From Kiritimatiellia bacterium (GTDB lineage: Bacteria > Verrucomicrobiota > Kiritimatiellia > JAAZAB01): a stretch of DNA of 64,000 nt. This document shows positions 30,075 through 52,928 of this stretch, one piece after another; the stretch's first letter is position 1, and every line of letters begins with the position of its first letter. The stretch covers positions 1-64,000 of the forward strand of contig JAXGPF010000008.1 in assembly GCA_040767085.1 (NCBI GenBank), read 5' to 3'. Under the pieces are notes generated by a model. The model was given only the letters and a program-made list of their open reading frames with translations, was not told the origin of the DNA and made no database searches. Position numbers and translations under genes: made by a program.

Positions 30075-30456
30075 GGGTGTAAGACAAAATTGTTGATGAT
30101 ATGTGTAAACTTTAATTTCGCGTAGGATTCAGTGTGTTTTATGAGTCCGCTATAGATACAACCCTTTAAATTCCGGTAATTTCGGCCAGGTTACACTATC
30201 CTGGCCGAAATTGGGCCACCGCGTTGCGAATTCCGCTCCCCGAGCTTGTCGAGGGGTTCGAAAAGACAAGGCAAGTTTGGGGTGGATGCGTGGGCGCAGG
30301 CGATGGCGCTAATCTCTTGATTGCGCCATCGCCTGCAACCACGCCCGCAGGGTCCGCGCAGCGGACAGACGCCCCAAAATGGCCGCCGTTCTTTTCGAAC
30401 GGAATTCGCTACGCATCCCTGCCGCCGCACTACCCCAACTAATTTGTCTTACATCC
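30075..30456. mobile_element. Non-autonomous MITE (copy A) carrying a structured core
   Basis: TIRs GGGTGTAAGACAAA / TTTGTCTTACATCC; flanks CAGAAGCC and CGGAAGCC (8-bp TSD, one mismatch); structured core at 30221-30414. Confidence 0.75.
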
Positions 30457-30581
30457 CGGAAGCCGTCCATCCAAATTTTCAGCGGTCCGGCCAAGCGGCC
30501 GATTAGCAGAAGATGCGAAAGCACTTTCCGTCAAGTAGAACATGCTTGACTTCAATGATCCAATCCATAAATCTGGATGAG

Positions 30582-33500
30582 ATGGCGATGCGTATATTCA
30601 TCACAATGATTGTCTTATGCCTGGCGGCGGCCGGCGGCGCGGCCGCGCCGCCGGCTGCCGTTTCCAGCGCATTTTATACCCGGTGGCAAGCCGGCGCGGC
30701 GCTGGCGCTGCTGGCCGGAAATCCCGCCCAGGCGGAACGCGCGCTGGCGGACCTGGCGGAATCCGGCGCGGGCTTGCCGGCCGCCGAGCGGCCCGATGCG
30801 GCGCGATTCCTGCAGGCGGCCATTTGTCACGCGGCGCGCCGGCCGGCCACGAACGCGCTGCACATTTTCGCCCCCGGCATGGATGCCCGCCGCGCGGCGC
30901 TCTGGGATGTTCTGGAGCGCCTGCCGTGGACCGGCGGCCGGCGCGCTGCCTGGGACGGATTGCTGCGGGACCTGGCGGACAACGGCATCTGGTACGATTC
31001 CGCCATGCTCCGGCTGCCGGGTTTCCTGGAGCTTTGCCGGGAACAGCGCGCGGCGCCGGAACAGTTGTCTGCCCTGGCGGCCGGCCTGGGCGCGGCGCCG
31101 GCGGGATTGTTGGATGCGCTTTGGCTGGCGCGGAGTTTATACCCGCGTCAGGCGGAGCAATGGCGGGAATTATTCGCCGCGCGCCTGAGCGGCGAACGCG
31201 ATCCGGGAGTTTTACTGGCGGTGTTTGCGGGATTGGACGCCGGGCATTGGCGGCAGTTGCCCCGGCCGCGGGCGGAGTACCAGGCGGCGCTGGCGGAGTG
31301 GCTGTTGGGCAATATCTCCGCCGACCAGTGGCCGGCCCTGGACCGGGAGATGCTGCTGGCCATGGCGCGCGCCGGGCCCGCGCCGCTGGGGGAATGGGAA
31401 CGCATGTTGGCGGCCGCGCTGGCGGCCGCGCCGGAGGCCGCCGCCATCCGGGGCTGCCTCGACGCGCTGGTCAAGGCGCACGCGGCGCCGCGGGAAACCT
31501 TCGCGGCCATCGCGCCCTTGCTGGCCGAACACCAGGCGCTCTTCTGTCTGCTGCATGCTCCGACCAACGGCGTGATGGATACCTTGAACCGCGATCCGCG
31601 CAACCGCGAGGCGGCGCGCCGCATGCTGGCAGCCTTTCTGGCGCCCGAACGCGAAGCGGCATGGGATGCGCGCCTGGCCGGCCTGCTGCCCTTTTATTAC
31701 CAGACGGCGCGGCGCCGCGCCCAGGACGATTTATATGCGGAGGTAGTGCGCCCGATTGTCGGCGCGCGCTTGGCCCCGGATTTCGATCCGGCCCGCGCGG
31801 CCAACCCGGTCCGCCGGCAATTGACTTCCGCCTTGACCGGGCCGGAAGCTTATCTGGCGCCGCGCCATGGCCGGGATTTGGCCGCTGCGTTTCAGGCCGG
31901 GCTGGATTGGGAAGCCGGGATCGAACTGGCAACCGGCGCGGCGCCCAATTACCGTTTCGTGGCGGAGACCCTGTTGGCGTTGGGGCCGCGTTGGCTGGAG
32001 GATGACGCGACGCGCCATGACGGCATGCTTTATGCCGCGGCGCTGGCGCGCTGGACGGATTGGATGCTGCGCGGCGGACTGGAGCGGCCGGCAACGCTGC
32101 GGTTTGACTCGCCCGGCGTGGATGCCAGCCTGCGCGCGGTAGCGCGCGCCTGGCGCGAGACGCGGAACCGGTTTAAATTGCGGCAGCATGAAGTGGATTT
32201 GCAGGCCTTGTTCGCAGGCCTGACCGAAGAATTGTCCGCCGCGGCGGCGGAGTTTCGCCGCAAGGGCGGCGATTATGATGCCGGACGCGCCCGCCGGGAA
32301 CGGCTGGTGCAGGCGCTGCGGCTGACGCTGACCATCAGCGCCTTGATCGAAGACACCTCGCAATTGGAGACAGTGCTGGCTGTCATGCGCGGCCAGATTT
32401 TTGCGCTGCCGGAGTCCGGCGCCGCCCCGGCGCGCGTCCGGACTGAGGATGTGCTGCGGGAAGAAGTGGAACTTTTCCGGATGCTGGATGACGACCTGGC
32501 CGGATGCCTGCAGGGCCTGGCGCAGGCGCCCGGCGCCGCGCGCGAGTTGCAGGAACTGCTGCGTGATTTCGCGGTGCGCTACCACCATGAAGTGCAACTC
32601 GGCCTGCTGGCGACCGACGGTTTTCTCGCCCGGCTGCATGCCGTGGATGGACAGTTGACACCTTTCCGCCGCCTGCTGCAGGCCGGGCCGGCGGCGCATC
32701 CCTGCGCCCTGCCCGGCGCGGCGGCGCGGGAATCCTTTATTCAACTGGCCGCGCTGCTGGACCGCAGCCGTTTTTTAAATGCCGGCGATGGCTTGCCGGC
32801 ACTGCTGGAAATTTACCGCGCCCGGTTGCAGTTGTCCTTCTGGCGCAATCCGCTGCTCTGCGGCTTGAATGCGAACGTCGGGTTGCCGGTTTTGTTTCAA
32901 ATGCTGCGGGATGAGCCTTTGCCATCGCCGGCGGAGTTGCCGCCCGCGGCGGCGGAGGGCGATTGGCCGGCCCCGCATTTCCTGCCCGTGCTGGATGCGC
33001 TTCGGGCCGGCCTGGCAGCCGGGCCGGAGCGTGTGTTGGTCCGGCGGGTGCAGTATGACGATGCCGGCCGCGCCGTGCGCACGGAACTGCACGATCTCCA
33101 TGAATATATCTGGCGCGCCGACCGGCTGCTGCGCGCCCAGGAACTGCTGTCGTTCCCCGTCGCTCTGGCAGAAGGATCGCCGGGCGGCGCCGCGCCGCCG
33201 GATGACGCGCCGGTGTTTGCCTTGGCCAAGGCCGCGGTTTCGGCCAACCGGGCCGGCGATATACCGGCGCTGGCATTGCCGGGCGGCGCGGCGCCGCGCC
33301 GCCGGCTGGATGGCGCGCGCCGTGCGGAATTATGCCGGGTGGCCCTGCAATATGCCCGGACGCTTGACGACGCCATCGCCGCCGCGGAATGCGCCGTGAT
33401 GCTGCCGAATGCGCCGGAAAACGCGGCGGAACCCGGCCGGTTGGAGGCGTATGACAAACTGCGCCGGGCGGCGTTTGAGCGTTTGAGCGCGGCCATGGAT

Positions 33501-35561
33501 GCCGAGGCATATTCCGAGCGTCTGGCGGATGGATTGATCGCCATGCTGCGGCTGGAAGTCAGCCTGCGCGGCCGGGGCCGGGCGCTGGGCGCCCGGCAAG
33601 CCGCGGGGGCATGGTCGGCCCGGCTCGATCCCGCCGGGCGTTGGCGTCTGCTGGTGGAGCAATGGTCCATGCAGAATCATTTTCCAGCTTCCGCCGCCGC
33701 CGTCAAATCCTGCCGGGAACATTCTTTGCCGTCGGTGGAATGCCGGGCTTGCCGGGATGCCGTGGCGGCCGCCCTGGATGCGCGCGGCAACGAGTTGGAG
33801 GATTTGCGGCGGTTCTGCGCCGCGCAGGCTGGCGCCGCGCCAGCCGCGGCGCCGCGCAACCGCTGGGAAGCCATCGCGCAGTTGGCAGTGTTCCTGCGCC
33901 GCCTGGATAACGTGGCCGCGGAAATTGCCGCCATCGGTCCGGATACGGTGAAGTCGGCCTGGTACCTGTCGTCGCAGGCGCGCCGCGCCATGGAACTCGT
34001 GCCGCCGCACTGGACGGCCCGGCCGGCCTGGACCGACTTGATTGATCCGGAGGAGCCGCTGGCGGCCGCCATGGTGCGGGTGGCCCGGTTTTACGCGGTC
34101 ACCTTCAGCGAATTATTGCCCATTCATGGCAACATTGCGCAGGCGGACTTGCTGGGCGATGATGCCGGCCGGCCGGCCAATGGCGACGCTCTGGCGGTTT
34201 TCAGCATGCTGGATGCCGGGATCAAGTCGTTTTTGCTGGATGTTGCGGCCTTGGAGCGGCGTTTGCCGCCAGCCGCCGGCGCCGCCGATACCCTGGCGCC
34301 CGTGGGCACGCTGGCGCCGCGCGAGTTGGTGGCGGTGCATTCGGCCATGCAGCCGCTGCTGGCGCTCGGCGTGTGGTCGCACGGGACGAATGCTGTTCAG
34401 GGCGGCGGCACGCTGATGCAGTTTGTGGTGGAAGGCCGGCAATACGCGGAAACATATTTCGACCTGGATATCGTCCTGGAAACCGGCGGGTCGTTTACCC
34501 TGGCGCCGCGCGGCATGTTCGAAGAATCCCTCCGGTCGTGGGACTTGCTGATGGCGGCGGCGGACCCGGTCAACGGCGATGAATTTATTTATAACGCCTG
34601 GTTCGGCGACCTGCGCCGGACCCTGGCCGGCGCGGGCGGCAGCCTTCCCGATCAATTCAATCTGGATGCCTTTTTGATCGCGGCTTCCGAGATCATGGAG
34701 GACACCCGTTATGAAACTGCCAGGCTGGCCCACCTGCGGGCGATGGCCTCAACCTTTCAGGGGGAGTTGTCCGCCTGGCTGGATGGCGGCGGCGGCGCGG
34801 CCATGGGCCGCGGATTCGCCGCGGCGCGCACCCCGATGGTGCTGGCCGCCATCGCGGAAAGGATGGCGGATCGCCTGGGATTGTATCGTCCGGAAGGCGC
34901 GGACGGATTAGCGGCGCTGGAAGGCCGGCGGCGGGAGGCCTATGCCGGATTCTGCCGGCATTGCCTGTTCGATACTGGCGCCGGGCAGCCGGTTTTCCCG
35001 GCGATCGTGCGCGAATCGCTCGCCGCCGGCTTTGCCGGCGGTTTGGCTGCGGAACTTGCCGGCGCCACCAACGGCTTGCAACTGGCCCGCGCGCGCTTTG
35101 CCGCTTTATTCGATCCATATGCCCCGCCAGCCGCCGCGCCTGGCAACGCTGACGCCGGCCCGACATCGCCGCGCTCCAGCGGTATAACCGGTTTGTATAG
35201 CCGGGCGTTGGCGGATGCTGCCGGCAATCCCGGTTATTGGTTTGCGGGGGATTTTACCCAGGCCTACATGCATCTGGCATCGGAAATATATTGGCGTGGA
35301 GCGCGGGGGAGAGATGGCGCCGGCGCGGCGCCGACGGTGAGCCATCCCTGGCGGCTGGATGAAAATGGGCGCGCTTACATCAGCGCGGCCGCTCCGGAAG
35401 ATGCCCTGGCGGCGCTGGCGCTCCATGCGGCGGAGGTCCGCGAGCATCTGGTCTGGCGCGCCGCATGCGCCGGGCGTTATGCCGGAGTGCCGTTTATCCG
35501 CCGGTTTTTCGGCGGCCGGCCGCTGCCGCCGGCGCCGGCCGGGGATGCCGCCGGGAAATAA
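30582..35561 (+). CDS. Very large secreted Ala/Leu-rich, probably all-alpha hypothetical protein (about 1660 aa)
   Basis: Long uninterrupted ORF with GC3 bias, signal peptide MRIFITMIVLCLAAAGGAAA; no family recognised. Confidence 0.8.
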   Translation: MAMRIFITMIVLCLAAAGGAAAPPAAVSSAFYTRWQAGAALALLAGNPAQAERALADLAESGAGLPAAERPDAARFLQAAICHAARRPATNALHIFAPGMDARRAALWDVLERLPWTGGRRAAWDGLLRDLADNGIWYDSAMLRLPGFLELCREQRAAPEQLSALAAGLGAAPAGLLDALWLARSLYPRQAEQWRELFAARLSGERDPGVLLAVFAGLDAGHWRQLPRPRAEYQAALAEWLLGNISADQWPALDREMLLAMARAGPAPLGEWERMLAAALAAAPEAAAIRGCLDALVKAHAAPRETFAAIAPLLAEHQALFCLLHAPTNGVMDTLNRDPRNREAARRMLAAFLAPEREAAWDARLAGLLPFYYQTARRRAQDDLYAEVVRPIVGARLAPDFDPARAANPVRRQLTSALTGPEAYLAPRHGRDLAAAFQAGLDWEAGIELATGAAPNYRFVAETLLALGPRWLEDDATRHDGMLYAAALARWTDWMLRGGLERPATLRFDSPGVDASLRAVARAWRETRNRFKLRQHEVDLQALFAGLTEELSAAAAEFRRKGGDYDAGRARRERLVQALRLTLTISALIEDTSQLETVLAVMRGQIFALPESGAAPARVRTEDVLREEVELFRMLDDDLAGCLQGLAQAPGAARELQELLRDFAVRYHHEVQLGLLATDGFLARLHAVDGQLTPFRRLLQAGPAAHPCALPGAAARESFIQLAALLDRSRFLNAGDGLPALLEIYRARLQLSFWRNPLLCGLNANVGLPVLFQMLRDEPLPSPAELPPAAAEGDWPAPHFLPVLDALRAGLAAGPERVLVRRVQYDDAGRAVRTELHDLHEYIWRADRLLRAQELLSFPVALAEGSPGGAAPPDDAPVFALAKAAVSANRAGDIPALALPGGAAPRRRLDGARRAELCRVALQYARTLDDAIAAAECAVMLPNAPENAAEPGRLEAYDKLRRAAFERLSAAMDAEAYSERLADGLIAMLRLEVSLRGRGRALGARQAAGAWSARLDPAGRWRLLVEQWSMQNHFPASAAAVKSCREHSLPSVECRACRDAVAAALDARGNELEDLRRFCAAQAGAAPAAAPRNRWEAIAQLAVFLRRLDNVAAEIAAIGPDTVKSAWYLSSQARRAMELVPPHWTARPAWTDLIDPEEPLAAAMVRVARFYAVTFSELLPIHGNIAQADLLGDDAGRPANGDALAVFSMLDAGIKSFLLDVAALERRLPPAAGAADTLAPVGTLAPRELVAVHSAMQPLLALGVWSHGTNAVQGGGTLMQFVVEGRQYAETYFDLDIVLETGGSFTLAPRGMFEESLRSWDLLMAAADPVNGDEFIYNAWFGDLRRTLAGAGGSLPDQFNLDAFLIAASEIMEDTRYETARLAHLRAMASTFQGELSAWLDGGGGAAMGRGFAAARTPMVLAAIAERMADRLGLYRPEGADGLAALEGRRREAYAGFCRHCLFDTGAGQPVFPAIVRESLAAGFAGGLAAELAGATNGLQLARARFAALFDPYAPPAAAPGNADAGPTSPRSSGITGLYSRALADAAGNPGYWFAGDFTQAYMHLASEIYWRGARGRDGAGAAPTVSHPWRLDENGRAYISAAAPEDALAALALHAAEVREHLVWRAACAGRYAGVPFIRRFFGGRPLPPAPAGDAAGK

Positions 35562-35582
35562 AAGCGGGTCCGGAAATCCGAT

Positions 35583-36986
35583 ATGCGTAAAAATGAGATC
35601 ATAAACCTGATGCGAGGCCTGTGCGCCTGGGCGTTGCTGGCGCTGGGCTTGGCCGCCGGCCGGGCGCAGGGGATCGTCGGCCTGCATGGCGCGGAACTGG
35701 GGGGGATGGAACCCTGGGATATTCCACTCCCCGAAACGCCGATGGATGACGGGATGGCGCGCCGCATCGCGGAAGTTGCATATCCGCATCTCCTGCGCCT
35801 GGACGCGCGCGAATCGCTGTTGAGCGGAGCGGCCACCAATGTCTGGCTCGATCCGGCCCGCGCCCTGGACGCGCTGGAGGAAATGCAGCCGGAACTGGCG
35901 CGGGATATTTTGACGGTTGCCGCCTTGCTCGGCAAGCATGCCGCGGAAGTCAGCGGTTGGGAAGCCGGGATCGCTTCCAACCTGGCTCTCGGCGCGCCCT
36001 GGACGGCAGCGGCCTTGAGCCAGGCCTTGAATCTCAAGCCCGACGGGACTGCCGCATCCGATCCTGTCGCCCGCCGGCATTGGCTGGCCGCCGCCTGGGC
36101 ACCGGTGGCGGCGGGATTGAATCTGTCGGAGCCGGCGCGGCAAGTCGTGGCCGCGCTGGGATTGTCGGCCGAAGCGCATGCCGCCGATCCGGCCTGGTCC
36201 TGGCTGGCATTCCTGGCCGCTTTGCGCCGGACCGCGGCGGATGCCGGGGCCCGGACCTATGCTGCGCCGTCCTTACAGGCTTTGCTGGGCGACTTGCGAT
36301 CAACCATGCTCGCGCCGCATGCCCTCGGGGACTTGGCGGAGGCGGCGGATTTCCATGAGCGCATGGAAGCGCTGATCGGCGGGCAGGCGGTCGCCGGGCT
36401 GTTCCGGCCGGAATTGCTGGACCGCTGGGTGCTGGAAGGCGGTGATTTCATCTATGAAGCTTTCTGCGCGCAGGCGGGCGGTGCGGTGCGCGCCGCCCTC
36501 GATGGCGCCGTCTTGTCGGCCGTTTTAAGCGATGGTTTTGTCTGGCAGGAAAACGCGGCGGAGGTTGTGGCGGCGGGCTATGAAGTCCGGGCCGCCCGTT
36601 ACGCGGTGCTGGCGGGAGAGTTGGGCGCGCGGCTGGCCGCGGGGAACGCGGGCGGGCCGGACGCAGGACGGCTGTATGGTTATTATCTCATGCTTTTGGC
36701 GCGTTTCCCGCCTTGCCTGTCGCCTTTCCGCGTCGAACTGGTGAATCCGAACTGGCTGAGGTTTGTCGAGGAAAATCCCGCCTTCGGCGCGGAAATGGCG
36801 TCTGCCCGCCCCGCAACGCCGGCGGCAGCCGATGCCGCGGCGCCGCCGCCCATGCCCATGCTATGCCTGCTGCAGTCCGATGCCTGGCAGGATGAAACCG
36901 GCCTGTGGCAATGGCGGCCGCGCGTCGCCGGCCGGCGGCATCGCCTGGATCAATACCTGCGGCGCCCAGCGGAAAACAGGGAGTGA
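35583..36986 (+). CDS. Secreted hypothetical protein
   Basis: Signal peptide (ALLALGLAAGRAQ), helical composition, 21 bp downstream of the previous gene. Confidence 0.78.
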   Translation: MRKNEIINLMRGLCAWALLALGLAAGRAQGIVGLHGAELGGMEPWDIPLPETPMDDGMARRIAEVAYPHLLRLDARESLLSGAATNVWLDPARALDALEEMQPELARDILTVAALLGKHAAEVSGWEAGIASNLALGAPWTAAALSQALNLKPDGTAASDPVARRHWLAAAWAPVAAGLNLSEPARQVVAALGLSAEAHAADPAWSWLAFLAALRRTAADAGARTYAAPSLQALLGDLRSTMLAPHALGDLAEAADFHERMEALIGGQAVAGLFRPELLDRWVLEGGDFIYEAFCAQAGGAVRAALDGAVLSAVLSDGFVWQENAAEVVAAGYEVRAARYAVLAGELGARLAAGNAGGPDAGRLYGYYLMLLARFPPCLSPFRVELVNPNWLRFVEENPAFGAEMASARPATPAAADAAAPPPMPMLCLLQSDAWQDETGLWQWRPRVAGRRHRLDQYLRRPAENRE

Positions 36987-36994
36987 TATTGCAG

Positions 36995-37051
36995 TTCCGT
37001 TTCGACTTGATACATTTTTGCGTAGCAAAAATGTATCAAGCCGCAATGGAG
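36995..37051 (+). repeat. Long hairpin (16-bp perfect core, GTA loop) just after a stop codon
   Basis: CTTGATACATTTTTGC-GTA-GCAAAAATGTATCAAG; homologous hairpin at 43141-43195. Confidence 0.75.
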
Positions 37052-37200
37052 TTTGGATAGAATTCATCGTGGTGCTTAATGGCCATGCTGATAAAAGCAT
37101 GCCCATCGTTGGAGAGGCGCCAACGTCTGGAGTGTGCGGATTTTGAAATCAAAAAAGCAAGACATGGGAGATGGAAGATTGACAAGGTGGTGGCGAGAAA

Positions 37201-37430
37201 AAGGCGGGTTGACGCAGGCGTCAGCCACTTGTCATGCGTAGCGCCGCGCGAAGCATGATGCCACCGTGGTTTGAATTCGGGCGCCCGTAGTCCGCGGAGG
37301 GATTCGAAAAGGCAAGGCAAGCTTGCCCCAGATGCGGGTAAGATCGCCGCCACCCTTTTCGAACCGAATTCAAAACACAACGATGGAGAGGAAGCAAAAC
37401 AAAATTGGGTTGCGGGCATACGCCCGCCTT
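37201..37430 (+). repeat. Structured repeat element copy B (internally deleted)
   Basis: Homologous to 43261-43564; short IR AAGGCGGG/CCCGCCTT; core TTTGAATTCGG...CAAGGCAAG...CCGAATTCAAA. Confidence 0.8.
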
Positions 37431-37434
37431 GTAT

Positions 37435-39909
37435 ATGCGCATTTTTTTACAGATTATCTTCGCGGCCGCTTGCGCGGCATTGCTGGCGGCGGGATTCCAG
37501 CGCGGCTGGTGGCAGGCGCTGGCTGATATGCCGCCCGCCGGACGCCAGGTCTGGCAGCAGGGATTGTGGCCGGTACAGGACCAGGTGGCGGCGGAAATCG
37601 GCACGCGCGCCAAGGCTGCCGGCGCCACCCGCGAACAGCCGCTGCGGGTAGCCCTGCGCATGGATGGGTCCGCTATCCCGGGTTTGCGTTTCGCGCCGTT
37701 GCGTTCGGCGGACTGGGAGCGGATGCTGGAACGCGCGGAGGCGGCCGGCGGCGCTGTTGTCATGGTCGCACCGGATGCCGGGCCACCGCCCGATTTGTCA
37801 GTGGCGTTGATCTGGCAATCATATGCCCGGGGCGGAACTACCGACGAATTGACGGGCATGATCCGCTATCAATCCGCGGCGGACCGGGACGCGCCGGAAG
37901 CGTCCGGCGGGGCGGCTTTCCGGGCGGTATGTCCGGCGCATGGCCGGAATTGGTTTGTGCGGCCGGCACGGCAGTTGCCATGGTGGTGCATGCTGGCTGC
38001 GTTGGCAGCCATGGCCGCCGCCGGCGGCCTGGGGGTCTGGGCGGCCTGGCAGACGTTTACCGGCCAGTTTGACCGGTCATTCTGCATGAATGTCTGCGCG
38101 GGATTGACTTTGATCCTGTTTCTTATGTTGATGTTGACGGATATAGCGCCGGCTGGCTACGGCCAGTTCGGCATTCCACGCTGGAGCGTGCGGATTGCCG
38201 TAGACACCAGCGATGCGGTGCGTTTCCCGCTGCCTGATCAGGCGCTACGGCCGGATGCGCCCGGCACGGCGGCCGAGTCCGGCCCGGCGGCCGAGTCCGG
38301 CCCGGCGGCCGCGCCGGTGATGAACGATGTTGGCCGGTTTATGGAACAGAGCATCCGGCGCATTGCCCAGGCGGTGCATTCTGACAGCGCCCCGGCGGGC
38401 GCGGGATTCAAGGCCTGGCTGCGTTATACCTGGCAAAATCTGGGCCGGTCGCGCCTGCGTTCCGGGTTGTTGCATGCCTCGGAAACCGTGCGGATTTTTC
38501 ACGGATTGCCCTTGGCCGGCCTGGCGCAGGATGCGGCCGGACAAGCCCCCGGCACCGCATCGCTGGAGGGATTGCCGGACTTGCTGCGGGCCGGCCAGCG
38601 CGGCCAGGCGCCAGGCTTCTTCCTGCCCTGGGCGGCCATACCGCCCGGCGCGGACAACGAATTGATCGTGGCGTTTTGCACTGGCGAGCCTGCCTCGCCG
38701 CGCCAGGCGGAATGGTTGGCCGCGGAGCGCGCGCGGCTGCGCGCGGCGAAACCCGCGGGCTTGCGCGTGTTGACGGTGTTGCTGCCGGCCTGGCCGCGCA
38801 GCGACCATCATGGCTGGACCACGGCCGAGCGGCTGCGCAACGCGGCGGCGGTGAGCGATGCGGTTTTGGCAACATATCCGCTGGACGGGCAGGAAGCCGC
38901 GCCCGCCGGTTTGCCGGCGCCGGTCGCATGGCTGCGGGTGTTCTCTGCCGTGGGAACCAATCCGCCGGCGCCCAAAGCGGATTTGGATGCGGCGCGCTCC
39001 AGCCAGTTCCGCGCGGATGCCGGCCGGATACGCGCGGCGGCGGCGCGGATTGCCGAAAAGGTGCAGGGGTTGAGCGATGTGCGCAGCAGCGCGACTTTTC
39101 AAACGGCGCCGGCGGCGCTGATCCTGGGAGTATGCGCTGCGGCCGGACTGCTGCTTTTTTTGCGGCTGCAGCGTGAAATCCGGCTGCTGGATCGGCGCCG
39201 GCCGGCGGGCAACCTGGAATGGCTGGGCGCCTTGTGCGGCGGGGGCATGGGCATAGGCGCGGCCTTGCTGATCGCCTACATGGCGTCCGAACCGCTGCGT
39301 TGGCGCACGCTGACCAGCCCGGGTTTGGCGTTATGGGCCGTGGTGTGCCTGTGGTATGCGGCGGTCTGGCTGCCGATGCTGCTGGGACGCGGACTGGGAT
39401 TTTTGCCGGCGCCGGAAAAAATGCTGCGCGTGCGCCACCTGGCCGGATGGTTTGTGGCGTTGGCGGCGGCGGCTGGTTTGGCGGCCGGCGCCGGCGTCTG
39501 CTGGGCGCTGCTGACGGGCGGAGAACCGCCGGCCTGGGTGGCGTTAACCGGCATGGGCCTGACAGCGGCCGCCAGCCTGGCATTGGCCCTGCGCTACCAG
39601 TGGGTCAGTTTCTGGCGGCGGTCGCGCCGGCGCACCTGGGGCCTGGGCGCGGCCGGGCTGGCCCTGCTGATCGGGTTGCCGGTCTGGAGTATAGCGGGAG
39701 GCGAGGCCGGGACGTTGACGCCCTGGTGCTGGGCCGGAACTATCATGGCCGCATGCGCCCTGCCCGCCGCGGGCGCGTTGTCTGCCCGCTGGCGGTGGGG
39801 CCACCGCGGCCTCCGCCCGCAGCCCGGCCTGGGGTGGTCGGGGCTGGTTTACGGGTTGATAATCGGAGTGTTGGTCCCCCTGGCGCTGCTCTGCCCCTGG
39901 CCAAATTAG
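37435..39909 (+). CDS. Multi-pass membrane protein with a degenerate vWA-like domain (BatA/BatB-like layout)
   Basis: TM segments, then VRIAVDTSDA (DxSxS-like), ELIVAFCTGE and LRVLTVLL strands, then several C-terminal TM helices; upstream of MoxR. Confidence 0.6.
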   Translation: MRIFLQIIFAAACAALLAAGFQRGWWQALADMPPAGRQVWQQGLWPVQDQVAAEIGTRAKAAGATREQPLRVALRMDGSAIPGLRFAPLRSADWERMLERAEAAGGAVVMVAPDAGPPPDLSVALIWQSYARGGTTDELTGMIRYQSAADRDAPEASGGAAFRAVCPAHGRNWFVRPARQLPWWCMLAALAAMAAAGGLGVWAAWQTFTGQFDRSFCMNVCAGLTLILFLMLMLTDIAPAGYGQFGIPRWSVRIAVDTSDAVRFPLPDQALRPDAPGTAAESGPAAESGPAAAPVMNDVGRFMEQSIRRIAQAVHSDSAPAGAGFKAWLRYTWQNLGRSRLRSGLLHASETVRIFHGLPLAGLAQDAAGQAPGTASLEGLPDLLRAGQRGQAPGFFLPWAAIPPGADNELIVAFCTGEPASPRQAEWLAAERARLRAAKPAGLRVLTVLLPAWPRSDHHGWTTAERLRNAAAVSDAVLATYPLDGQEAAPAGLPAPVAWLRVFSAVGTNPPAPKADLDAARSSQFRADAGRIRAAAARIAEKVQGLSDVRSSATFQTAPAALILGVCAAAGLLLFLRLQREIRLLDRRRPAGNLEWLGALCGGGMGIGAALLIAYMASEPLRWRTLTSPGLALWAVVCLWYAAVWLPMLLGRGLGFLPAPEKMLRVRHLAGWFVALAAAAGLAAGAGVCWALLTGGEPPAWVALTGMGLTAAASLALALRYQWVSFWRRSRRRTWGLGAAGLALLIGLPVWSIAGGEAGTLTPWCWAGTIMAACALPAAGALSARWRWGHRGLRPQPGLGWSGLVYGLIIGVLVPLALLCPWPN

Positions 39910-40038
39910 CAGCAATAGATTACCGCGCGCCATTCCAGCAGCAGGACTGCGTCATTCTCGGAAAAGACGGCTCGGTACGGCTTGCCCTACATAGCTTCAG
40001 CGAAGTCCGTCAAAGCCGGACGCAGCCCGCAGGGAGAC

Positions 40039-42067: not shown

Positions 42068-42092
42068 CCGCGCCGCCGGAAATTCTGCAACC

Positions 42093-43136: not shown

Positions 43137-43140
43137 ACCG

Positions 43141-43195
43141 TTCCTTCCAAACATGATACATTTCACGTAGCAAAATGTGTCGTGTCTGGAAAGAA
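43141..43195 (+). repeat. Hairpin homologous to 36995-37051
   Basis: ACATGATACATTT-CACGTAGCA-AAATGTGTCGTGT with G-U pairs on the plus strand. Confidence 0.65.
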
Positions 43196-43260
43196 TAAGT
43201 AATACCAAATGCAACCATGAGATTTTATTTAATAATATTACTGAATGATGATAAGACAGT

Positions 43261-43564
43261 GCGGGGTGGCGCAGGTATCAGGCAATTTTCATGCGTAGCG
43301 CGGCGCGAAGCATGATGCATGCGTGGTTTGAATTCGGGCGCCCGCAGGGATTCGAAAAGACAAGGCAAGCTTGCCCCAGATGCGGGCGCTCCGGGAGCGG
43401 GGCTAACCTCGTGGTTGCCCCGCTTCCGGGAAGCCCGCCCGCAGGGACGCCCCTCAGCGGGCGGCAGATGGGGCAAGATCGCCGCCGTCCTTTTCGAACC
43501 GAATTCAAACCACAACGGTGGAGAGGGAGAAAGCATGAATTGGGCTGAGGGCAAAGCCCGCCTT
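43261..43564 (+). repeat. Structured repeat element copy C (full-length core)
   Basis: Core 43322-43513 with nested stems and a GCTAACCTCGTGGTTGC apical hairpin; flanks homologous to copy B. Confidence 0.82.
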
Positions 43565-43574
43565 AGGAGCGCTT

Positions 43575-43985
43575 ATGTTTAAAGTCTTGAATCCATACAT
43601 GCTGGTCGCGGTGGACGCAATCCCGATCACCGACATTCAACCCGGGCCGACGCCGGAAAAGACCTTCGTCTATCTCGATCCGCGGCGGGAGGAGAATCAG
43701 GGGCGGACGGAATTGCGGGTGGCCTGGCCGGAATTCTGCACCATCCATTTCAAGGCCAGGGTCAACAAGCGCGAGCGGATTGTGACGGTGCCGGACGTGC
43801 TGCTGGAATATCTGGCCTGGTTGAACAAGGAACTGGGCGGATGGAAATCCCTGCCGCCCCGGCCGTGGGATCCGGATTCCGCCGTCGGGCGCTGGTTTTC
43901 GCCTTACCTGCGGGTGTCCAGTATGGAAGAATTGCGCCAGGGTTTGGCCGCCGATATGGCCTTGCTGCGCAGCATGCGCCGCTGA
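43575..43985 (+). CDS. Hypothetical protein
   Basis: AGGAG RBS, typical codon usage, 7 bp upstream of the next gene. Confidence 0.75.
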   Translation: MFKVLNPYMLVAVDAIPITDIQPGPTPEKTFVYLDPRREENQGRTELRVAWPEFCTIHFKARVNKRERIVTVPDVLLEYLAWLNKELGGWKSLPPRPWDPDSAVGRWFSPYLRVSSMEELRQGLAADMALLRSMRR

Positions 43986-43992
43986 TTTAACC

Positions 43993-45678: not shown

Positions 45679-45707
45679 GTTGGGCGGCATTGCCGCCGGC
45701 CGGTCGG

Positions 45708-46925: not shown

Positions 46926-46973
46926 GATGCTCCCGCTGTAACGTTTTCGTTTCCCATCAACACGGACATGAAA

Positions 46974-48926
46974 TCAGCCGCCGGACGTTGCGCCGACCTG
47001 TAAATTCAGCCTGCCGCCGGCCAGGATGATGGCGCGTTCGCGTTCGTTCAGGCGGCATTGCACCGGGATGGCGATGCCGCGGGTGATATTCTGCAAGGTC
47101 AGCGCGCCGCGTTCCAACCCGGCCCGCAAACCGGCCAGTTCCAGGACGTCGCCTTGTTCCACGCGGGCGTAATCGCCGGGATCCTGGAATATCAGCGGCA
47201 GGATGCCGCAGTTGATCAGGTTGGCGGTATGAATGCGCTCAAAACTCCTGGCCGCCACCGCCCGCACGCCCAGAAACATCGGGCAGAGCGCGGCATGCTC
47301 GCGGCTGGAACCCTGGCCGTAAGACTCGCCGGCAATGATGAAGGAGACCCGCCCCTGCGCCCGGGCCGCTTTGCACCGCGCGGGAAAACCTGGATCCACC
47401 GGATGAAAAACATATTCGGCGTATTTGGGCACATTGGAGCGGAGCTTGAGAAAGGCGCCGGCCGGCATGATGTGGTCGGTGGTGACCTTGTCCCCGACCT
47501 TGATTTGCGCAATGCCGGCCAGAGTGTCGGGCGGCGGCACATTGCGCGGCAGCGCGCCGATGTTCGGGCCGCGGACGAGCGCGACCTGCGCCCGCGCGGC
47601 CGGCAGCGGTGGTTCGACGATCATCGCATCGTCCGTAATGAAGTGCGCCGGCTGTTTAATGAAGGGGTAGCGGCCGGCCCCCCAGCCGCGCGGATCGGTG
47701 AATTCGCCCGCGACGGCAGCCGCGGCGGCGGTTTCCACGGAAGCCAGGTACACGGCGGCATCCCGCGTGCCGCTGCGGCCGAGGAAGTTGCGGTTGGAAG
47801 TGCGGATGGAAACGGCGTTGGAACGCGGGGCATGGGAATTGCCGATGCAAAAACCGCAGGCGCTTTCCGCGATCCGCGCGCCGGCGGCGATCAGGTCGGC
47901 CAGGGCGCCGTTGCGGGCAATCATCTCCAGCACCTGCCGCGAACCCGGCGCCACCACCAGGCTGATGCCAGGGGCGATTTTTTTACCGGCCAGCATGCGG
48001 GCCGCCACCATCAGGTCCTTGTAGGATGAATTCGTGCAGGAACCGATGCACACCTGCTGCACGGCCAGCCCGGCGAGTTCCCGCACCGTTTTTACATTGT
48101 CCGGGTTATGCGGCGCGGCGGCCAGCGGTTCGATCTGCGACAAATCAATGTCAATCACCCGGTCGTAGCGGGCGCCCGGGTCGGCCTTGAGCGGCGTGTA
48201 ATCCGCCAGCCGGCCCTGCGCCTGTAAAAAACGGCGGGTGACATTGTCGGCCGGGAAAACCGAGGCCGTGACGCCCAGTTCGGCGCCCATGTTGGCGATG
48301 GTGGCGCGTTCCGGCACGCTCAAGGTGCGCACTCCCGGCCCGCCGTATTCCAGGGCCGTGCCGACGTTGCCCTTGGAAGTCAGCATTTGCAGCAAACGCA
48401 GAATGACATCCTTGGCCGAGACCCAGGGCGGCAGTCGGCCGGCCAGGCGGACCAGGCAGACCCGGGGACATTGCAAAGCGAAGGGTTGGCCGGCCATGGC
48501 CAGCGCCACGTCCAATCCGCCGGCGCCGATGGCCAGCATGCCGATCCCGCCGCCGGTGGGGGTATGGGAATCCGAGCCCAGCAGCGTCCGGCCGGGCTTG
48601 CCGAACCGCTCCAGGTGCACCTGGTGGCAGATGCCGTTGCCCGCACGGGAAAATTTCACGCCGAACCTGGCGGCCGCTGACTGCAGGTAGGCGTGGTCGT
48701 CGGCGTTTTCGAAACCGGACTGCACGGTGTTATGGTCCACATAACTGACCGAAAGTTCGGTTTTGACCGATCCGGCGCCCATCGCCTCGTATTGCAGGAA
48801 GGCCATGGTGCCGGTAGCATCCTGGGTCAAGGTCTGGTCAATGCGAATCTCAATATCCGCGCCCGGCGCCCAGGCGCCGCTGGCCAGGTGGCTGGTGATG
48901 AGTTTCTCGACGACGCCCCGCGGCAT
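46974..48926 (-). CDS. Aconitate hydratase (short, Aquifex-like type)
   Basis: DQTLTQDATGT, YVDHN, GICHQVH, GSDSHT, IGSCTNSS, CGFCIG, TTDHIMP, YGQGSSREHAA. Confidence 0.95.
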   Translation of the reverse strand: MPRGVVEKLITSHLASGAWAPGADIEIRIDQTLTQDATGTMAFLQYEAMGAGSVKTELSVSYVDHNTVQSGFENADDHAYLQSAAARFGVKFSRAGNGICHQVHLERFGKPGRTLLGSDSHTPTGGGIGMLAIGAGGLDVALAMAGQPFALQCPRVCLVRLAGRLPPWVSAKDVILRLLQMLTSKGNVGTALEYGGPGVRTLSVPERATIANMGAELGVTASVFPADNVTRRFLQAQGRLADYTPLKADPGARYDRVIDIDLSQIEPLAAAPHNPDNVKTVRELAGLAVQQVCIGSCTNSSYKDLMVAARMLAGKKIAPGISLVVAPGSRQVLEMIARNGALADLIAAGARIAESACGFCIGNSHAPRSNAVSIRTSNRNFLGRSGTRDAAVYLASVETAAAAAVAGEFTDPRGWGAGRYPFIKQPAHFITDDAMIVEPPLPAARAQVALVRGPNIGALPRNVPPPDTLAGIAQIKVGDKVTTDHIMPAGAFLKLRSNVPKYAEYVFHPVDPGFPARCKAARAQGRVSFIIAGESYGQGSSREHAALCPMFLGVRAVAARSFERIHTANLINCGILPLIFQDPGDYARVEQGDVLELAGLRAGLERGALTLQNITRGIAIPVQCRLNERERAIILAGGRLNLQVGATSGG

Positions 48927-49080
48927 ATATCCTGCTCCTTCCTGGCGCTTGATCAATGTCCAAAACCATCCAACTAGTTTGTCATATGGCCTTTTACGCT
49001 TGAGTAAGGTCAACCAAGCGTAATACAATACATCATTCTAAAAATGGCCGGGCCTGTCAAGATTGTTATGGAGTGCGCGC

Positions 49081-49671
49081 ATGCCGTCGCCGGTGGCACA
49101 TACCCTGATTGGAATTACGCTGGGCGCGGCCTGCTGCCTGCCGCGCGGCGGCGGCTGGCGCCGGCTGGGCGCCCGGCTGTGGCGCTGGCGCGGCTTGCTG
49201 CTGGTGTGCGCGTTGCTGGCCAATGCCCCGGATATTGACTACCTGTTCGGGTTGGCCGCCGGCGATTTGAACAGCCGGCATCAGTTGGTCACCCATACCC
49301 TGGGCTGGATTGCCGCCGTGGCCCTGGCCTTATGGTGGGCGCAGCGGTATTTCGCGCCCCGCGCGGTGCGGATGTCCGCCGCCTTGATTTTTCTGCTGCT
49401 GGCCAGCCATCTGGCGGCGGATTACCTCGGGCAGGACCTGGCTCCGCCTTTCGGCATCATGGCCTTCTGGCCGCTCTCGGACCGTTTTTATCTCTCGCCC
49501 TGGCCGTTGTTCCCGGCGCCCGCCAAGCGCGCGCTGGGCGAATTATGGTCGGCGCACAATTTGCGCGTGATGGCGTGGGAATTGGCGCTGCTCATGCCGG
49601 CGCTGCTGGCGGTCATGCTTTACAAGGCCCGCGGCTCCGCGGGGGATCCGCCGGCCGGCCATACTGGTTGA
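49081..49671 (+). CDS. Membrane metal-dependent hydrolase (YdjM-like)
   Basis: PSPVAH, APDID, HQLVTHT, SHLAAD, FWP motifs. Confidence 0.9.
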   Translation: MPSPVAHTLIGITLGAACCLPRGGGWRRLGARLWRWRGLLLVCALLANAPDIDYLFGLAAGDLNSRHQLVTHTLGWIAAVALALWWAQRYFAPRAVRMSAALIFLLLASHLAADYLGQDLAPPFGIMAFWPLSDRFYLSPWPLFPAPAKRALGELWSAHNLRVMAWELALLMPALLAVMLYKARGSAGDPPAGHTG

Positions 49672-50207
49672 GTTCGCGGCGGACGCTTTAGCATCCGCCG
49701 CCTTGCCAGGGTGACAGACACCAGCCAAAGCGCGATAAACGGCGCGGTTCCCAACAAGAATGGCATATAACTGAAGATCACTATCTCCAGCTCGTCGTCC
49801 ATGCCCAGCATTCTGATGACGGCGGAAAGCATCCCGGCCAGCAGCATCCGCCAGAGGGCGGACTTGAATGGATACCTGCAAAACAGGTATGCCAGGCAGG
49901 GAATGAACCATAAGCAGTTGATGATGTTGGTGGCAAACAGCCGCGGGGTGTCTTGGTAGAATCCCATCTCCATGTCCGGCGGCGGAAAAAAATTGATCAG
50001 CAACCCGGTTGCCAGCGCGGGGAGCAAGGCGGCTTTCAGCAGCGACCGCAGGCTGGGCGGGCGGCCTTCCATCAGGATGACCGCCAACGTTAAAAACCCG
50101 CCAAACAGACCGCCGCGTATGCCGAAGGCAAGCGGGTCGAAAATCCCGCTCAGCCATCCCGCGCCGGCGCCGATCAAAAGCAGCCAGGCCTTTTGCTTGA
50201 TATTCAT
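49620..50207 (-). CDS. Hypothetical membrane protein
   Basis: GGAGG RBS, ATGA overlap with the radical SAM gene, about six TM helices. Confidence 0.75.
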   Translation of the reverse strand: MNIKQKAWLLLIGAGAGWLSGIFDPLAFGIRGGLFGGFLTLAVILMEGRPPSLRSLLKAALLPALATGLLINFFPPPDMEMGFYQDTPRLFATNIINCLWFIPCLAYLFCRYPFKSALWRMLLAGMLSAVIRMLGMDDELEIVIFSYMPFLLGTAPFIALWLVSVTLARRRMLKRPPRTQPVWPAGGSPAEPRAL

Positions 50208-51508
50208 GTTTCCTCCGGGGATGTTTGTCCGTTGACCATGGCAAAGTAAGCGGGCAGCGGTTCCGGCGCCGTCTGCGCGCACACGATTTCGCTGAGTTCG
50301 GGCGGCAAAGGCAGGGCGTCCGCACGGTATCCGGCAAGCAGGCGGTGGTATTTACGGATGAAACAATCGCGCCGCGGATTGTTCCCCATCGCCTGGTTCA
50401 TCCGCCGCCAGATGCGGTCGAGCGCAGTATCCCTGACATTGCCGAACCCGAGCGGCGTGAAATCGCAGGGACAAACAACGCCGTTGGGTTGGATATACAA
50501 ATGCTGGGTGCCGGCGCCGCAACCGAAGATTTCCGGGCTTTCGATTTGATTGAAAGCACAGATTTTAGGGGCTATACCCCGCTGGTTCGTTTGCACATGA
50601 AAATCACGCAGCCGGGCGATCTGCCGGGCCGTCAGAAAGATTTCCGCCCCGGCCTGCGCCAGTTTGCCGCATGGCATCAGTTCCGCAATCCGGTATTCAT
50701 GAACCCCAAGCTTCCGGCCGAGCTCGTGGACGCGCGTATATACGCCATTTTCCACAAAAGCGCGGGTGGCGACGCTGCTGATCATGGTGTAAAAGCCATG
50801 GCGCCGGGAAAGCCGGATGGTTTCTAGCGCCTGCGTAAATATGCCCGGGATGCCCCGCATGCGGTCATGGTCTTCCGCGTTGTCGAAGTCCAGGCTGACG
50901 CAACACGCCCAGAGCCCGGCCTTTTTCAACCCCGCCATTTGCGCCGGCGTGACGCCCGCGCCGGAGGTGAAGAGGATGGATTCCAGCCCCAGGCGGCGGG
51001 TATGCCGCACGAGTTCGGGCAAGTCGCCGCGCAATAAAGGTTCCCCGCCGGTAAAGCCGATGATGCTGACGCCGAGATTCAGCAGTTGCCAAAGTACATC
51101 CTGCCATTCCGCCGTGGCCAGTTCCGTGTCCATCCGTCGGTCGGCGCTGCAATGGAAGCAGCGGCACGGGCATTGCGCCGTCACGGCCAGGAACGCCGAG
51201 ACAGGGCTGAGGTGACGTCCGGAAAACAGATTGTCAAACATCCGGTCGTATCCCGGTCCCGGGAAAGGCGGGATGAAAGAATTCAGGACCCAGCGCCCCT
51301 GGTGGCGGGTCAGCCTTTCGCCGTCCAACCATTGCCGGATGAAGGCGAGGGCCGCCCCCTTGCGTCGGCGTGGGCGCAGCGATTCGTAGACCCGGTCGGG
51401 GACGCGCCGGATGCCTTGGGCGCGCAATTTTGCCAATGCCCATAACGGCTTGGCGGTGATGCGCGGGTTGAGCATCACCCGCAGGAGCTGGAATGTCAGG
51501 CCGTTCAT
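50204..51508 (-). CDS. Radical SAM protein with SPASM/Twitch domain
   Basis: CPCRCFHC, FTGGEPLL, FGCGAG...NGVVCPCDF. Confidence 0.93.
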   Translation of the reverse strand: MNGLTFQLLRVMLNPRITAKPLWALAKLRAQGIRRVPDRVYESLRPRRRKGAALAFIRQWLDGERLTRHQGRWVLNSFIPPFPGPGYDRMFDNLFSGRHLSPVSAFLAVTAQCPCRCFHCSADRRMDTELATAEWQDVLWQLLNLGVSIIGFTGGEPLLRGDLPELVRHTRRLGLESILFTSGAGVTPAQMAGLKKAGLWACCVSLDFDNAEDHDRMRGIPGIFTQALETIRLSRRHGFYTMISSVATRAFVENGVYTRVHELGRKLGVHEYRIAELMPCGKLAQAGAEIFLTARQIARLRDFHVQTNQRGIAPKICAFNQIESPEIFGCGAGTQHLYIQPNGVVCPCDFTPLGFGNVRDTALDRIWRRMNQAMGNNPRRDCFIRKYHRLLAGYRADALPLPPELSEIVCAQTAPEPLPAYFAMVNGQTSPEET

Positions 51509-52383
51509 GATCTTTGCAGGATGCCCATGATGTAGTGGTGTCGTAGCGGCTGCGCCTGTGTGTGCAGGCAGTTTTCGAAATAGTCCGCCACATGCGGCTG
51601 ATCTTGCAGCGGCAGCATGTGGTCAAAGCCGGCCAGGACGCCGGTGCGCAGGAGCCATGGCGTACTGGCCTGATGCGCCGCGGCGACCGGCTGGCAACCC
51701 TCGGCATGCCACAACGCCTTCAAACCGCAAGCCGCGGCTTGGCGGGCGAACTGTTGCCAGGATTGCGGAAACCGCGGAAAGGCCAGCGCCTGGAGTTCGC
51801 CGGGGAAACGTTGCATGGTCCGGCGGAAGGCAATATATACGGGATACAGCGAGTCGCGCAAATTGACCACAAAGGCGAAAACGCCGCCGGGACATAAGAC
51901 GCGGCGCGCTTCCCGCAATACTGCCGGCGGATTGGCGTAACCGATGACCCAGGCCGACACAATCATTTGCGCCCTGGCCGATTGCTCAGTTTTCAAAAAA
52001 TCGCGCATATCCCCGGCCGCAAAAACGACATTATCCGCGGCGGCATTTTTGCGCGCCACGGCGAGCATGCCGTCCGAGATATCCTGCGCGATGATTTCCG
52101 CGTTGGGGTATCTGGCCGCCAGCTTGCCGGTCGTGTAGCCCGTGCCGCAGCCCAAATCCATGATTCTGCCGGCCGGGACATCCGGAAGTTGCGCCAATAG
52201 CCGGTCGGTTACACTGCGTAGACGGCATAACCAATTCGCATCGTAATCCGGGGCGATGCGGTCGTAACTGGCCTTGACCTGCCGGGGTCCAATCCAGCGG
52301 CAACGGACGAGCAACTGCGCCGCCCGCCAGTTCAGCCGCAGGCAATCGGAATATTTTCCAATATCCATCAGATTGGACCGCAT
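51505..52383 (-). CDS. Class I SAM-dependent methyltransferase
   Basis: YDRIAPDYD, MDLGCGTG, DISDGML, RVLCPGG; overlaps the radical SAM start. Confidence 0.92.
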   Translation of the reverse strand: MRSNLMDIGKYSDCLRLNWRAAQLLVRCRWIGPRQVKASYDRIAPDYDANWLCRLRSVTDRLLAQLPDVPAGRIMDLGCGTGYTTGKLAARYPNAEIIAQDISDGMLAVARKNAAADNVVFAAGDMRDFLKTEQSARAQMIVSAWVIGYANPPAVLREARRVLCPGGVFAFVVNLRDSLYPVYIAFRRTMQRFPGELQALAFPRFPQSWQQFARQAAACGLKALWHAEGCQPVAAAHQASTPWLLRTGVLAGFDHMLPLQDQPHVADYFENCLHTQAQPLRHHYIMGILQRS

Positions 52384-52522
52384 CCCGCCAACAGCATCGC
52401 CGTGCAGGCAAGCGCAAATCCCGCGATTCTACAACCATATGCCAAAACACAAGTTTGCATGGTTGGATGTTACAATTAGGGCCGGTGAAAGTAAACCGCT
52501 GTTTTCACGGCGGGGATTCCAA

Positions 52523-52928
52523 GGGCGTAAGTCATTTCCGTAGGGGTTTGCCGAAAGGTTTGTGTGGCGGTATGCCCCGACTATTTTGAATCATGCGGGA
52601 AAAGCTGATCCAATCGGACATGCCGGTGAAGTGTAGTTTAGAGAATGATTTATGTTTCCGGGAATTCCGGCATGGCGCTTGTGGCGCCATCGCCGGAATG
52701 GGCGTACCGCGTGGTGAATTCCGCTGCCCGGAGTCTGCGCAGGGATTTGAAAAAGCAAGGCAAGTTTGGGGTGGATGCGGGCGCGCCGCGCGCCAGACGC
52801 CCCAAAATCGCCGCCGCCTTTTTCAAACGGAATTCACTACGCATTCCCACGGGGATTGCCCGCCACCCGCACGTCAATACAGCATTACGTCTCCCCCACA
52901 AAAACCCCTAAGGAAGTGAAATGCGCCC
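52523..52928. mobile_element. Non-autonomous MITE (copy D) carrying the structured core
   Basis: 27-bp imperfect TIRs (52523-52549, 52902-52928); perfect 9-bp TSD GGATTCCAA (52514-52522, 52929-52937); core at 52709-52842. Confidence 0.88.

Follow-up and report, generated by a model that had tools for sequence, protein, structure and literature searches.

Four copies of a structured core in a Kiritimatiellia contig: candidate members of a class-wide family of modular, mobile intergenic repeats

Why should one elaborately folded sequence recur four times within a single stretch of bacterial DNA, on elements with different ends, and is its fold maintained because the host uses it as RNA or because the element itself needs it as single-stranded DNA or RNA? 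This question is raised by the first 64,000 nucleotides of contig JAXGPF010000008.1 (Kiritimatiellia bacterium, assembly GCA_040767085.1), hereafter the window, in which a first-pass annotation had noticed four related multi-stem cores, called A to D. Our best reading is that all four belong to a new family of structured intergenic repeats, modular and mobile, that extends across the class. All genomes compared are draft or metagenome-assembled. The cores were located by alignment and with a covariance model, R1, built from 57 distinct copies out of 66; the nine left out (L005, L008, L022, L048, L052, L061, L068, L073 and L084) carry nested insertions. The cores of the window are as follows:

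30216-30419, plus strand: core copy A, full length with apical domain (R1 224.4 bits, E 2.8e-52)
37261-37383, plus strand: core copy B, apical domain deleted (R1 108.5 bits)
43318-43518, plus strand: core copy C, full length (R1 198 bits)
52704-52847, plus strand: core copy D, apical domain mostly deleted (R1 147.4 bits)

The four copies align mutually over a common core, and both this alignment and R1 bear out the plus-strand placements of the first-pass annotation; the sequences that it quoted for helices P1, P2 and P3 and for the apical hairpin stand in the DNA as written. Folded as RNA, copy A reaches -118.7 kcal/mol (z -9.7), copy C -127.9 (z -10.8), copy B -49.6 (z -4.4) and copy D -71.3 (z -5.4), and 200 shuffles of each gave no fold as stable. 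For B and D the reverse complement folds less stably (-46.3 and -64.2 kcal/mol). P1, P2 and P3 are retained in B and D despite the loss of the apical domain, as had been proposed and as folding confirms. The internal-loop motifs CAAGGCAAG, ATSGCCGCC and GATGCG, described earlier as invariant, are identical across A to D; this description holds within the window's genus but not beyond it, since in the wider family near-invariance is limited to CAAGG and a few other positions.

The fold is supported by covariation on a larger scale. In a MAFFT alignment of the 57 copies, made independently of the model, 97.4% of the cells at paired positions are standard pairs and both sides have changed in 27 of 49 pairs, against 36-46% of cells paired when the partners are slid. 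Among 88 copies from other genera and families, folded with the original structure extended by two further helices, 95.2% of the cells are paired and two-sided changes are seen in 57 of 60 pairs; slid partners give 30-45% and none of 500 shuffles reaches the observed values. For the original 49 pairs this alignment had been fitted to the model, a procedure that works in favour of the structure. In homologues from other families nearly every pair of P1 and P2 has been replaced and the helices are kept. The strand can also be read from these alignments: G-U cells exceed A-C cells 84 to 22 in one and 222 to 78 in the other, about 3:1, which indicates that the strand as given is the folding strand and makes a symmetric duplex or cruciform site unlikely. 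The covariation and the G-U bias show a conserved structured nucleic acid on a defined strand, and the selection on a single-stranded fold suggested by the first-pass annotation is thereby upheld, with strong covariation in the larger alignments for which it had asked.

The core measures 177-181 nt in its usual form outside the window's genus and 205 nt within it. Its architecture is closed and branched, with eight helices. A terminal helix, P0/P1, closes the fold; a side hairpin, P1a, stands on the 5' arm only and is freely variable in stem and loop. Inward of P1a come P2 and then a 3-bp helix, GGC/GCC, flanked by conserved internal loops whose unpaired nucleotides read about CAAGGCAAG opposite AUCGCCGCC. 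The inner part consists of P3, P4, P5 and an apical hairpin, which has a conserved bulge; the window's genus alone has one or two additional hairpins. Peripheral parts of the core can be deleted or can bear nested hairpin insertions. In other genomes, GC-rich mini-hairpins are nested in loops and junctions of L005, L010, L022, L023, L048, L061, L068 and L073, for example TACCCCGC-NNNN-GCGGGGTAAG and CCGCCATAGCCTTGGCGGCGGCGG, several of them in some copies and with the core helices intact; these are insertions of a REP-like mini-repeat.

The size and spread of the family were then estimated. BLAST found 26 loci on both strands of the window's 4.08-Mb draft genome, and R1 found 22 strong copies there (E 1e-23 to 3e-52), together with one weak full-length match, one fragment and seven matches of a related 92-nt repeat. 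Of the 33 genomes of the same bacterial family 27 have R1 matches, as do 10 of its 14 genera, with at least 59 matches in the richest genome; only 74 candidates per genome were scored here, and copy numbers are lower bounds. Among 151 sampled Kiritimatiellia genomes 18 have matches, eight of them genomes of seven other families with one to four matches each. In a sample of 151 genomes of the phylum the only two with matches are both Kiritimatiellia. A scan with an exact pattern, over one genome for each of 185,579 species, returned 46 loci, 45 of them in metagenome-assembled genomes labelled Kiritimatiellia, Verrucomicrobiota or Lentisphaeraceae; the pattern is narrow and uninformative on absence elsewhere. 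The remaining locus, from Clostridiales (L045), is a sequence without the fold and was treated as a chance match. The family also appears to be new. At the gathering thresholds of Rfam 15 the whole window yields a tRNA at 13376-13446 only, and permissive scans of A and C give sub-threshold matches only (7.6-22.6 bits against cut-offs of 40-162); this non-match covers the known ribozymes, HEARO RNA and repeat-like motifs, in agreement with the earlier statement that no known Rfam family was recognised. A full-text literature search, judged from its search results, returned no description of the repeat family. One member of the 92-nt repeat lies in the window:

58169-58260, minus strand: related 92-nt repeat (R1 36.7 bits, E 6.3e-6), covering model positions 55-169, the inner core only

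Its motifs follow in the order GGC-AAG, P3, GAUGCG ... CAGAUG, P3', AUCGCC, and it is continued by an end resembling a terminal inverted repeat (TIR), ...TTTTCCTACACCC, with flank to about 58120. It is probably the cargo of yet another subfamily of miniature inverted-repeat transposable elements (MITEs).

What carries the core differs from copy to copy. A and D were said to lie inside MITEs bounded by TIRs and target-site duplications (TSDs), and TIR matches, inverted ends and duplications agree:

30075-30456 (382 bp), no strand assigned: ISKra4-type MITE carrying A, TIRs at 30077-30095 and 30436-30454
52523-52928 (406 bp), no strand assigned: MITE carrying D, 27-nt inverted ends at 52523-52549 and 52902-52928, 81% complementary

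The A element is flanked by an 8-bp duplication at 30067-30074 and 30457-30464 (CAGAAGCC/CGGAAGCC, 7 of 8 positions identical) and the D element by a perfect 9-bp duplication, GGATTCCAA, at 52514-52522 and 52929-52937; the ends of the two elements are related. Both carriers combine a duplication, small size and many copies with the absence of an open reading frame (ORF), as MITEs do. The 19-nt end motif of the A element occurs twice in the window against zero expected by chance, and is found paired genome-wide at a spacing of 116-422 bp. Ten such MITEs of the genome (131-437 bp) are flanked by direct repeats of about 8 bp, identical at 6-8 of 8 positions; one repeat looks like 11 bp. The parent insertion sequence (IS) was reached by searches starting at transposase genes: the TIR GTGTAAGACAAATTTGTTG stands about 50 bp behind matches to the ISKra4 transposase profile NF033572 in three related genomes (G042:C166, G024:C65 and G041:C290), three of nine among the matches listed, and the subterminal sequence behind ISKra4 transposases agrees with the right end of the A element, the comparison with the IS being limited to that end. 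Judged by its TIRs, the carrier of A is a MITE of an ISKra4-family insertion sequence. The window's genome contains relic fragments of ISKra4 transposases only, and the end motif was not found near them. No transposase was found next to solitary end motifs by Pfam searches of ORFs at seven of the eight full-length loci fetched; their neighbours are ordinary genes or genes without a Pfam match.

Copies B and C were described as having a different flank in common. The flank is real, and it belongs to a composite unit:

37203-37431, plus strand: composite unit around B, as the stretch common to other copies; 5' hairpin 37233-37257, core, tail, 3' hairpin 37412-37427
43260-43566, plus strand, outer limits approximate: composite unit around C; 5' hairpin 43290-43314, core, tail, 3' hairpin at about 43542-43561

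The C unit is followed by a ribosome-binding site and an ATG at 43575. Neither TIR nor TSD was found around B and C, where only short repeat pairs at chance level occur. The same TIR-less unit carries most copies in other genera. Its 5' hairpin has conserved GUA and GAA loop strands on a covarying stem, CATGC/GCATG here and CGGGC/GCCCG or TCCGCC/GGCGGA elsewhere. Its 3' hairpin, GGGTTGCGGGCAnnGCCCGCC, stands directly before the ribosome-binding site of the next gene and also occurs without a core at at least eight other sites, mostly preceding start codons; since it recurs without the core, the intergenic DNA can be regarded as a mosaic of repeat modules. The core-free copies of this motif, (A)TTGGGTTGCGGGCAnnGCCCGCC(TTGG), lie mostly 5-40 nt before a ribosome-binding site and start codon and include C9:6145, C4:103187, C22:397843, C24:348638 and C26:211544 of the window's genome (G000); one precedes a gene beginning MQKFGFDTLALHAGH. 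The motif may be a separate mobile or regulatory module of 5' untranslated regions, or an insertion target. Upstream of copy B, at 36996-37050, lies a near-perfect hairpin with 26-nt arms, ...CTTGATACATTTTTGC / GCAAAAATGTATCAAG..., and a similar string, GATACATTTTCCGTAGCAAA, adjoins the 3'-hairpin motif at G000 C9:6145; this hairpin is another small repeat family.

The core is thus carried by two MITE types and by a TIR-less unit, as the proposal of a module on several non-autonomous elements had implied: it is a movable module with at least three carriers.

Comparison of related genomes shows that copies come and go. The site of the A element is empty at the orthologous locus in G003 (G003:C574). 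Copy B is absent from the orthologous site in G004 and G001, and in G002 and G003 its place is taken by unrelated filler. Of six genomes of one genus, a single one has a copy between gyrB and gyrA, where the flanking genes are 83-93% identical. At these three sites presence and absence are clear and base-precise insertion borders are not readable, the TSDs of the MITEs excepted. In one sister genus the gyrB-gyrA spacers (L006, L211-L215) and many upstream flanks are filled with short tandem oligomers (GAATGCAGAATGCAG..., GATTTAGTGATTGAGC..., CAGACGCCGGACGACAGACGCC...), and such spacers defy alignment between species even where the adjoining genes are about 90% identical. Sister species can have different variants of the core at one and the same intergenic position. 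Four genes, encoding RNase Y, an aminotransferase, a DUF1844 protein and a glycogen-synthase-like protein, are each preceded by a copy in both G041 and G044. Between the two genomes these genes share 76-91% identity but 17-39% of the aligned core positions differ, with 39 compensatory pairs over the four loci. Similar genes next to divergent cores imply that the copy was replaced or re-inserted rather than inherited unchanged, although mis-assembly of repeats in metagenome-assembled genomes may contribute to the differences. In one pair of loci from G002 and G003 the flanks are 99.8% identical and the core differs at 13 of 200 positions, which reflects either gene conversion among copies or such mis-assembly. 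This pair is one of two cases in which G002 and G003, classed as different species, have contig stretches that are 99.8-100% identical (L246 and L243, L261 and L145).

The position of the copies relative to genes was analyzed with a home-made codon-usage gene finder, which reproduces the expected genes of the window. For the 88 copies from other genera the neighbourhood is as follows:

neighbours co-directional, copy sense: 38
neighbours co-directional, copy antisense: 15
neighbours convergent: 6
neighbours divergent: 2 (of 61 classified)
one or both neighbours uncalled: 27

In most sense copies, 5-100 nt separate the 3' end from the following start codon. The window's genome has ten antisense, five sense and four divergent copies among its 22, and three without assigned class. 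Copies of the B/C type account for four of the five sense copies, and four of the five B/C-type copies are sense; the MITE-borne copies of this genome are mostly antisense or divergent. Copies in other bacterial families are mostly antisense. Within the window's family antisense copies score like sense ones, with mean R1 scores of 158 bits (11 antisense) and 157 bits (34 sense). In the window, the distances from A, B and C to the co-oriented ORF downstream are 93, 21 and 56 nt, all within a plus-strand cluster holding a MoxR ATPase gene, and D is antisense to both neighbours. The first-pass annotation had remarked that three copies precede genes of the MoxR cluster: the location is correct, but a meaningful link does not follow, because the genes downstream of copies elsewhere are functionally unrelated. 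Among 53 such co-oriented genes, 44 of them with a Pfam match, are those of RecA, RNase Y, ParA, thymidylate kinase, S18, ScpA, FtsW, TsaE, MoxR and BatD, and the position of A to C in the cluster is incidental. At 30513-39909, upstream of the MoxR ATPase gene, lie three large co-oriented ORFs (1682, 467 and 834 aa) in which no Pfam domain was found at E<=0.001.

Transcription signals were sought as well. Sites of the sigma-70 type, which may not represent the promoters of this class, occur within 250 nt upstream of 6 of 78 copies, compared with 6.8 in shuffles and 13 on the other strand. In the window copies no promoter-like signal above chance and no terminator with a U-tract was found. A portable promoter cassette was also considered; it finds no support in the sigma-70-type scans, and the spacing of candidate hexamers in the conserved leader varies over 14-18 nt. 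A riboswitch or dedicated cis-regulatory leader was rejected in turn, 15 of the 53 copies between co-directional genes being antisense and the downstream genes functionally diverse.

Candidate enzymes were then searched for. The window's genome encodes seven RAYT-like Y1 (HUH) transposase ORFs (Y1_Tnp) of about 270-480 codons:

G000 C25:227678-228757, Y1 ORF
G000 C26:85460-86395, Y1 ORF
G000 C22:153991-155007, Y1 ORF
G000 C22:375211-376275, Y1 ORF
G000 C24:12061-13518, Y1 ORF
G000 C27:100951-101757, Y1 ORF
G000 C3:163180-163779, Y1 ORF

These ORFs have long C-terminal extensions; those of C25 and C26 are nearly identical, and one has an in-frame TAG. Comparable ORFs, about 340-370 codons long, are frequent throughout the bacterial family. 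PF01548 (IS110) has no match in the window's genome, and PF07282 (TnpB zinc ribbon) has a single below-cut-off match, at a locus where R1 found nothing. An omega-RNA (of TnpB or IscB) or an IS110 bridge RNA was therefore set aside, the expected adjacency to a nuclease or recombinase gene not being seen. As to a REP/REPIN-RAYT pair, repeats clustering at a Y1 gene were not found at the four Y1 loci searched. PATEs of IS200/IS605 type are marked by unlike subterminal hairpins at either end, by the absence of TIR and TSD and by a fixed target tetranucleotide; of these features the TIR-less units show the 5' and 3' hairpins and the lack of TIR and TSD. An integron attC site was put aside by eye, as the copies are singly dispersed and the terminal helix is GAATTY-rich; no search for intI was made.

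For whose benefit is the fold kept? We would give about an even chance to the reading in which it is kept mainly because it is needed for the persistence or spread of the element. A single strand, DNA or transcript, would be recognised by a factor acting in trans. The TIR-less units would move by a strand-specific single-strand mechanism of the type of REPINs or of IS200/IS605 derivatives, which their asymmetric, hairpin-bearing ends without TIRs would fit, and the MITE-borne copies would have been moved by an ISKra4-family DDE transposase. Effects on neighbouring genes, exerted through RNA structure in read-through transcripts, would then be a by-product.

Several observations weigh against this reading. 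Copies outside MITEs favour the sense orientation and are rare between divergent genes (2 of 61), a sense preference and a scarcity that would also fit a role at the RNA level. The tandem G-A positions, and internal loops that are both asymmetric and conserved, are reminiscent of a functional RNA. In four orthologous pairs from the window's genus, cores changed at 19 of 514 paired and 13 of 172 unpaired positions and flanks at about 15%; this slower change of the core fits selection in place, or use by the host, at least equally well. No enzyme is linked to the TIR-less copies: R1 matches (E<=1) were not found within about 1.5 kb of four of the seven Y1 loci, those searched, and the presence of Y1 genes does not follow that of the element: 25 of 27 carrier genomes have them, as do three of six non-carriers, small genomes lacking both. 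Finally, the TIR-less copies offer no base-precise ends or target, because the flanks of the empty sites are too diverged.

Several of these points are what one would expect if the core were a functional cis-acting RNA in operon or leader transcripts (a stabiliser, an RNase processing site or a modulator of translation) kept by the host, mobility merely explaining its arrival. Host-kept roles of this kind have been proposed for ERIC, BOX and Correia elements. We consider this explanation possible but doubtful. It accounts well for the strand-specific fold with its 3:1 excess of G-U over A-C, for the bias of 38 sense to 15 antisense copies between co-directional genes and the few copies between divergent ones, for the ends of sense copies shortly before start codons, for the sense orientation of most B/C-type copies of the genome, and for the asymmetric internal loops. 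The orthologous cores of the window's genus, more conserved than their flanks, and the four loci (RNase Y and others) at which two species retain a copy though the copies differ, also speak for it. It is harder to reconcile with antisense copies that are equally intact, with MITE-borne copies of the genome that are mostly antisense or divergent, and with copies in other families that are mostly antisense. In the four orthologous pairs of the window's genus, moreover, substitutions in stems broke pairs more often than they kept them (10 broken, 6 kept); the orthologue comparisons rest on four pairs here and four between G041 and G044.

A bolder reading, which we think unlikely, makes the core a functional RNA of a new, large structured class in Kiritimatiellia. 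Protein binding at its conserved internal loops, or a catalytic or templating activity seated there, would enable the units without TIR and TSD to copy themselves, and MITEs would have captured the module repeatedly because it functions at any landing site. If so, non-autonomous bacterial repeats would have a new mode of spread that depends on RNA.

About as unlikely is a stand-alone family of non-coding RNAs, in which each intact copy is a small gene whose RNA works with a protein, be it as scaffold, as guide or as catalytic partner; the models are retron RNA, bridge RNA and omega-RNA or HEARO RNA. A complex eight-helix fold kept throughout the class with conserved unpaired nucleotides, an intactness independent of the orientation of the neighbours, and multiple copies associated with mobile elements, as with HEARO RNA, are in its favour. 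Sigma-70-like promoters are not enriched at the copies, however, and U-tract terminators were not found in those of the window; the IS110 gene is absent and the TnpB match is below cut-off in this genome, no candidate partner gene was found beside copies at the loci whose ORFs were inspected, and no ribozyme family of Rfam matches. The non-coding RNA or ribozyme suggested in the first-pass annotation has accordingly gained no positive support, with no promoter or terminator signal above chance and with antisense copies scoring like sense ones. A double-stranded DNA site, be it a cruciform, a protein-binding palindrome or the leftover palindrome of a foldback MITE without single-strand selection, is highly improbable: the element is an imperfect palindrome and some copies do lie in MITEs, but the structure is asymmetric, with a side hairpin on the 5' arm only and non-palindromic loops, the G-U to A-C ratio is 3:1 where a duplex or cruciform predicts 1:1, and the core is distinct from the TIRs and present without any.

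The family has practical weight. Almost no member of Kiritimatiellia is in culture, and the non-coding DNA of the class is unexplored. The element, with dozens of copies per genome, takes up a visible share of the intergenic space, and some copies directly precede housekeeping genes (recA, gyrA, parA and the RNase Y gene, for instance). It breaks metagenome assemblies, many matches standing at contig ends. The presence of one core in two MITE types and in a TIR-less unit shows that repeat families exchange modules. Since a covariance model is available and over 140 copies have been aligned, with unusually rich covariation, the family is a good test case for bacterial structured repeats.

The family was finally compared with known systems. 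HEARO RNA, omega-RNA and IS110 bridge RNA are, like the present core, large, multi-copy, covarying structured RNA candidates tied to mobile DNA; they differ in that the core has no Rfam match, no TnpB, IscB or IS110 partner found in the genome, a terminal helix of its own that closes the fold and no evident guide segment. With ISKra4-family MITEs the carrier of A shares the IS end sequence and duplications of about 8 bp, and the carrier of D has related ends and a 9-bp duplication. The MITE is nevertheless only a vehicle: the structured core is an internal cargo distinct from the TIRs, and it is far more widespread without them.

REP/BIME and REPIN elements are mobilised by RAYT (Y1 HUH) transposases, and PATEs derive from IS200/IS605. 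They resemble the present family in their strand-specific hairpins, in units without TIR or TSD that, like the B/C type, have a hairpin at each end, in being kept out of divergent promoter regions, and in positions conserved between species with differing copies; seven RAYT-like genes are present in the genome. REPs are simple hairpins of 20-40 nt, whereas the core here is a multi-helix structure of 180 nt with no copy beside a Y1 gene at the four of seven loci searched. ERIC/IRU, BOX and Correia (NEMIS) elements are structured, transcribed intergenic repeats of enterobacteria, pneumococci and Neisseria. They too are non-coding, present in tens of copies per genome and intergenic, mostly between co-directional genes, and they are modular, imperfect palindromes with internal indels whose fold is kept by compensatory changes. 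The Kiritimatiellia family has no sequence relation to them, belongs to another phylum, is conserved across a whole class, and has a larger core with a branched eight-helix fold and asymmetric loops in place of one long hairpin; most of its copies, unlike Correia elements, are without TIRs and TSDs. By behaviour, its nearest analogues would be ERIC/IRU, BOX, Correia and REP/BIME/REPIN elements and, for copies A and D, the MITEs of the ISKra4 family.

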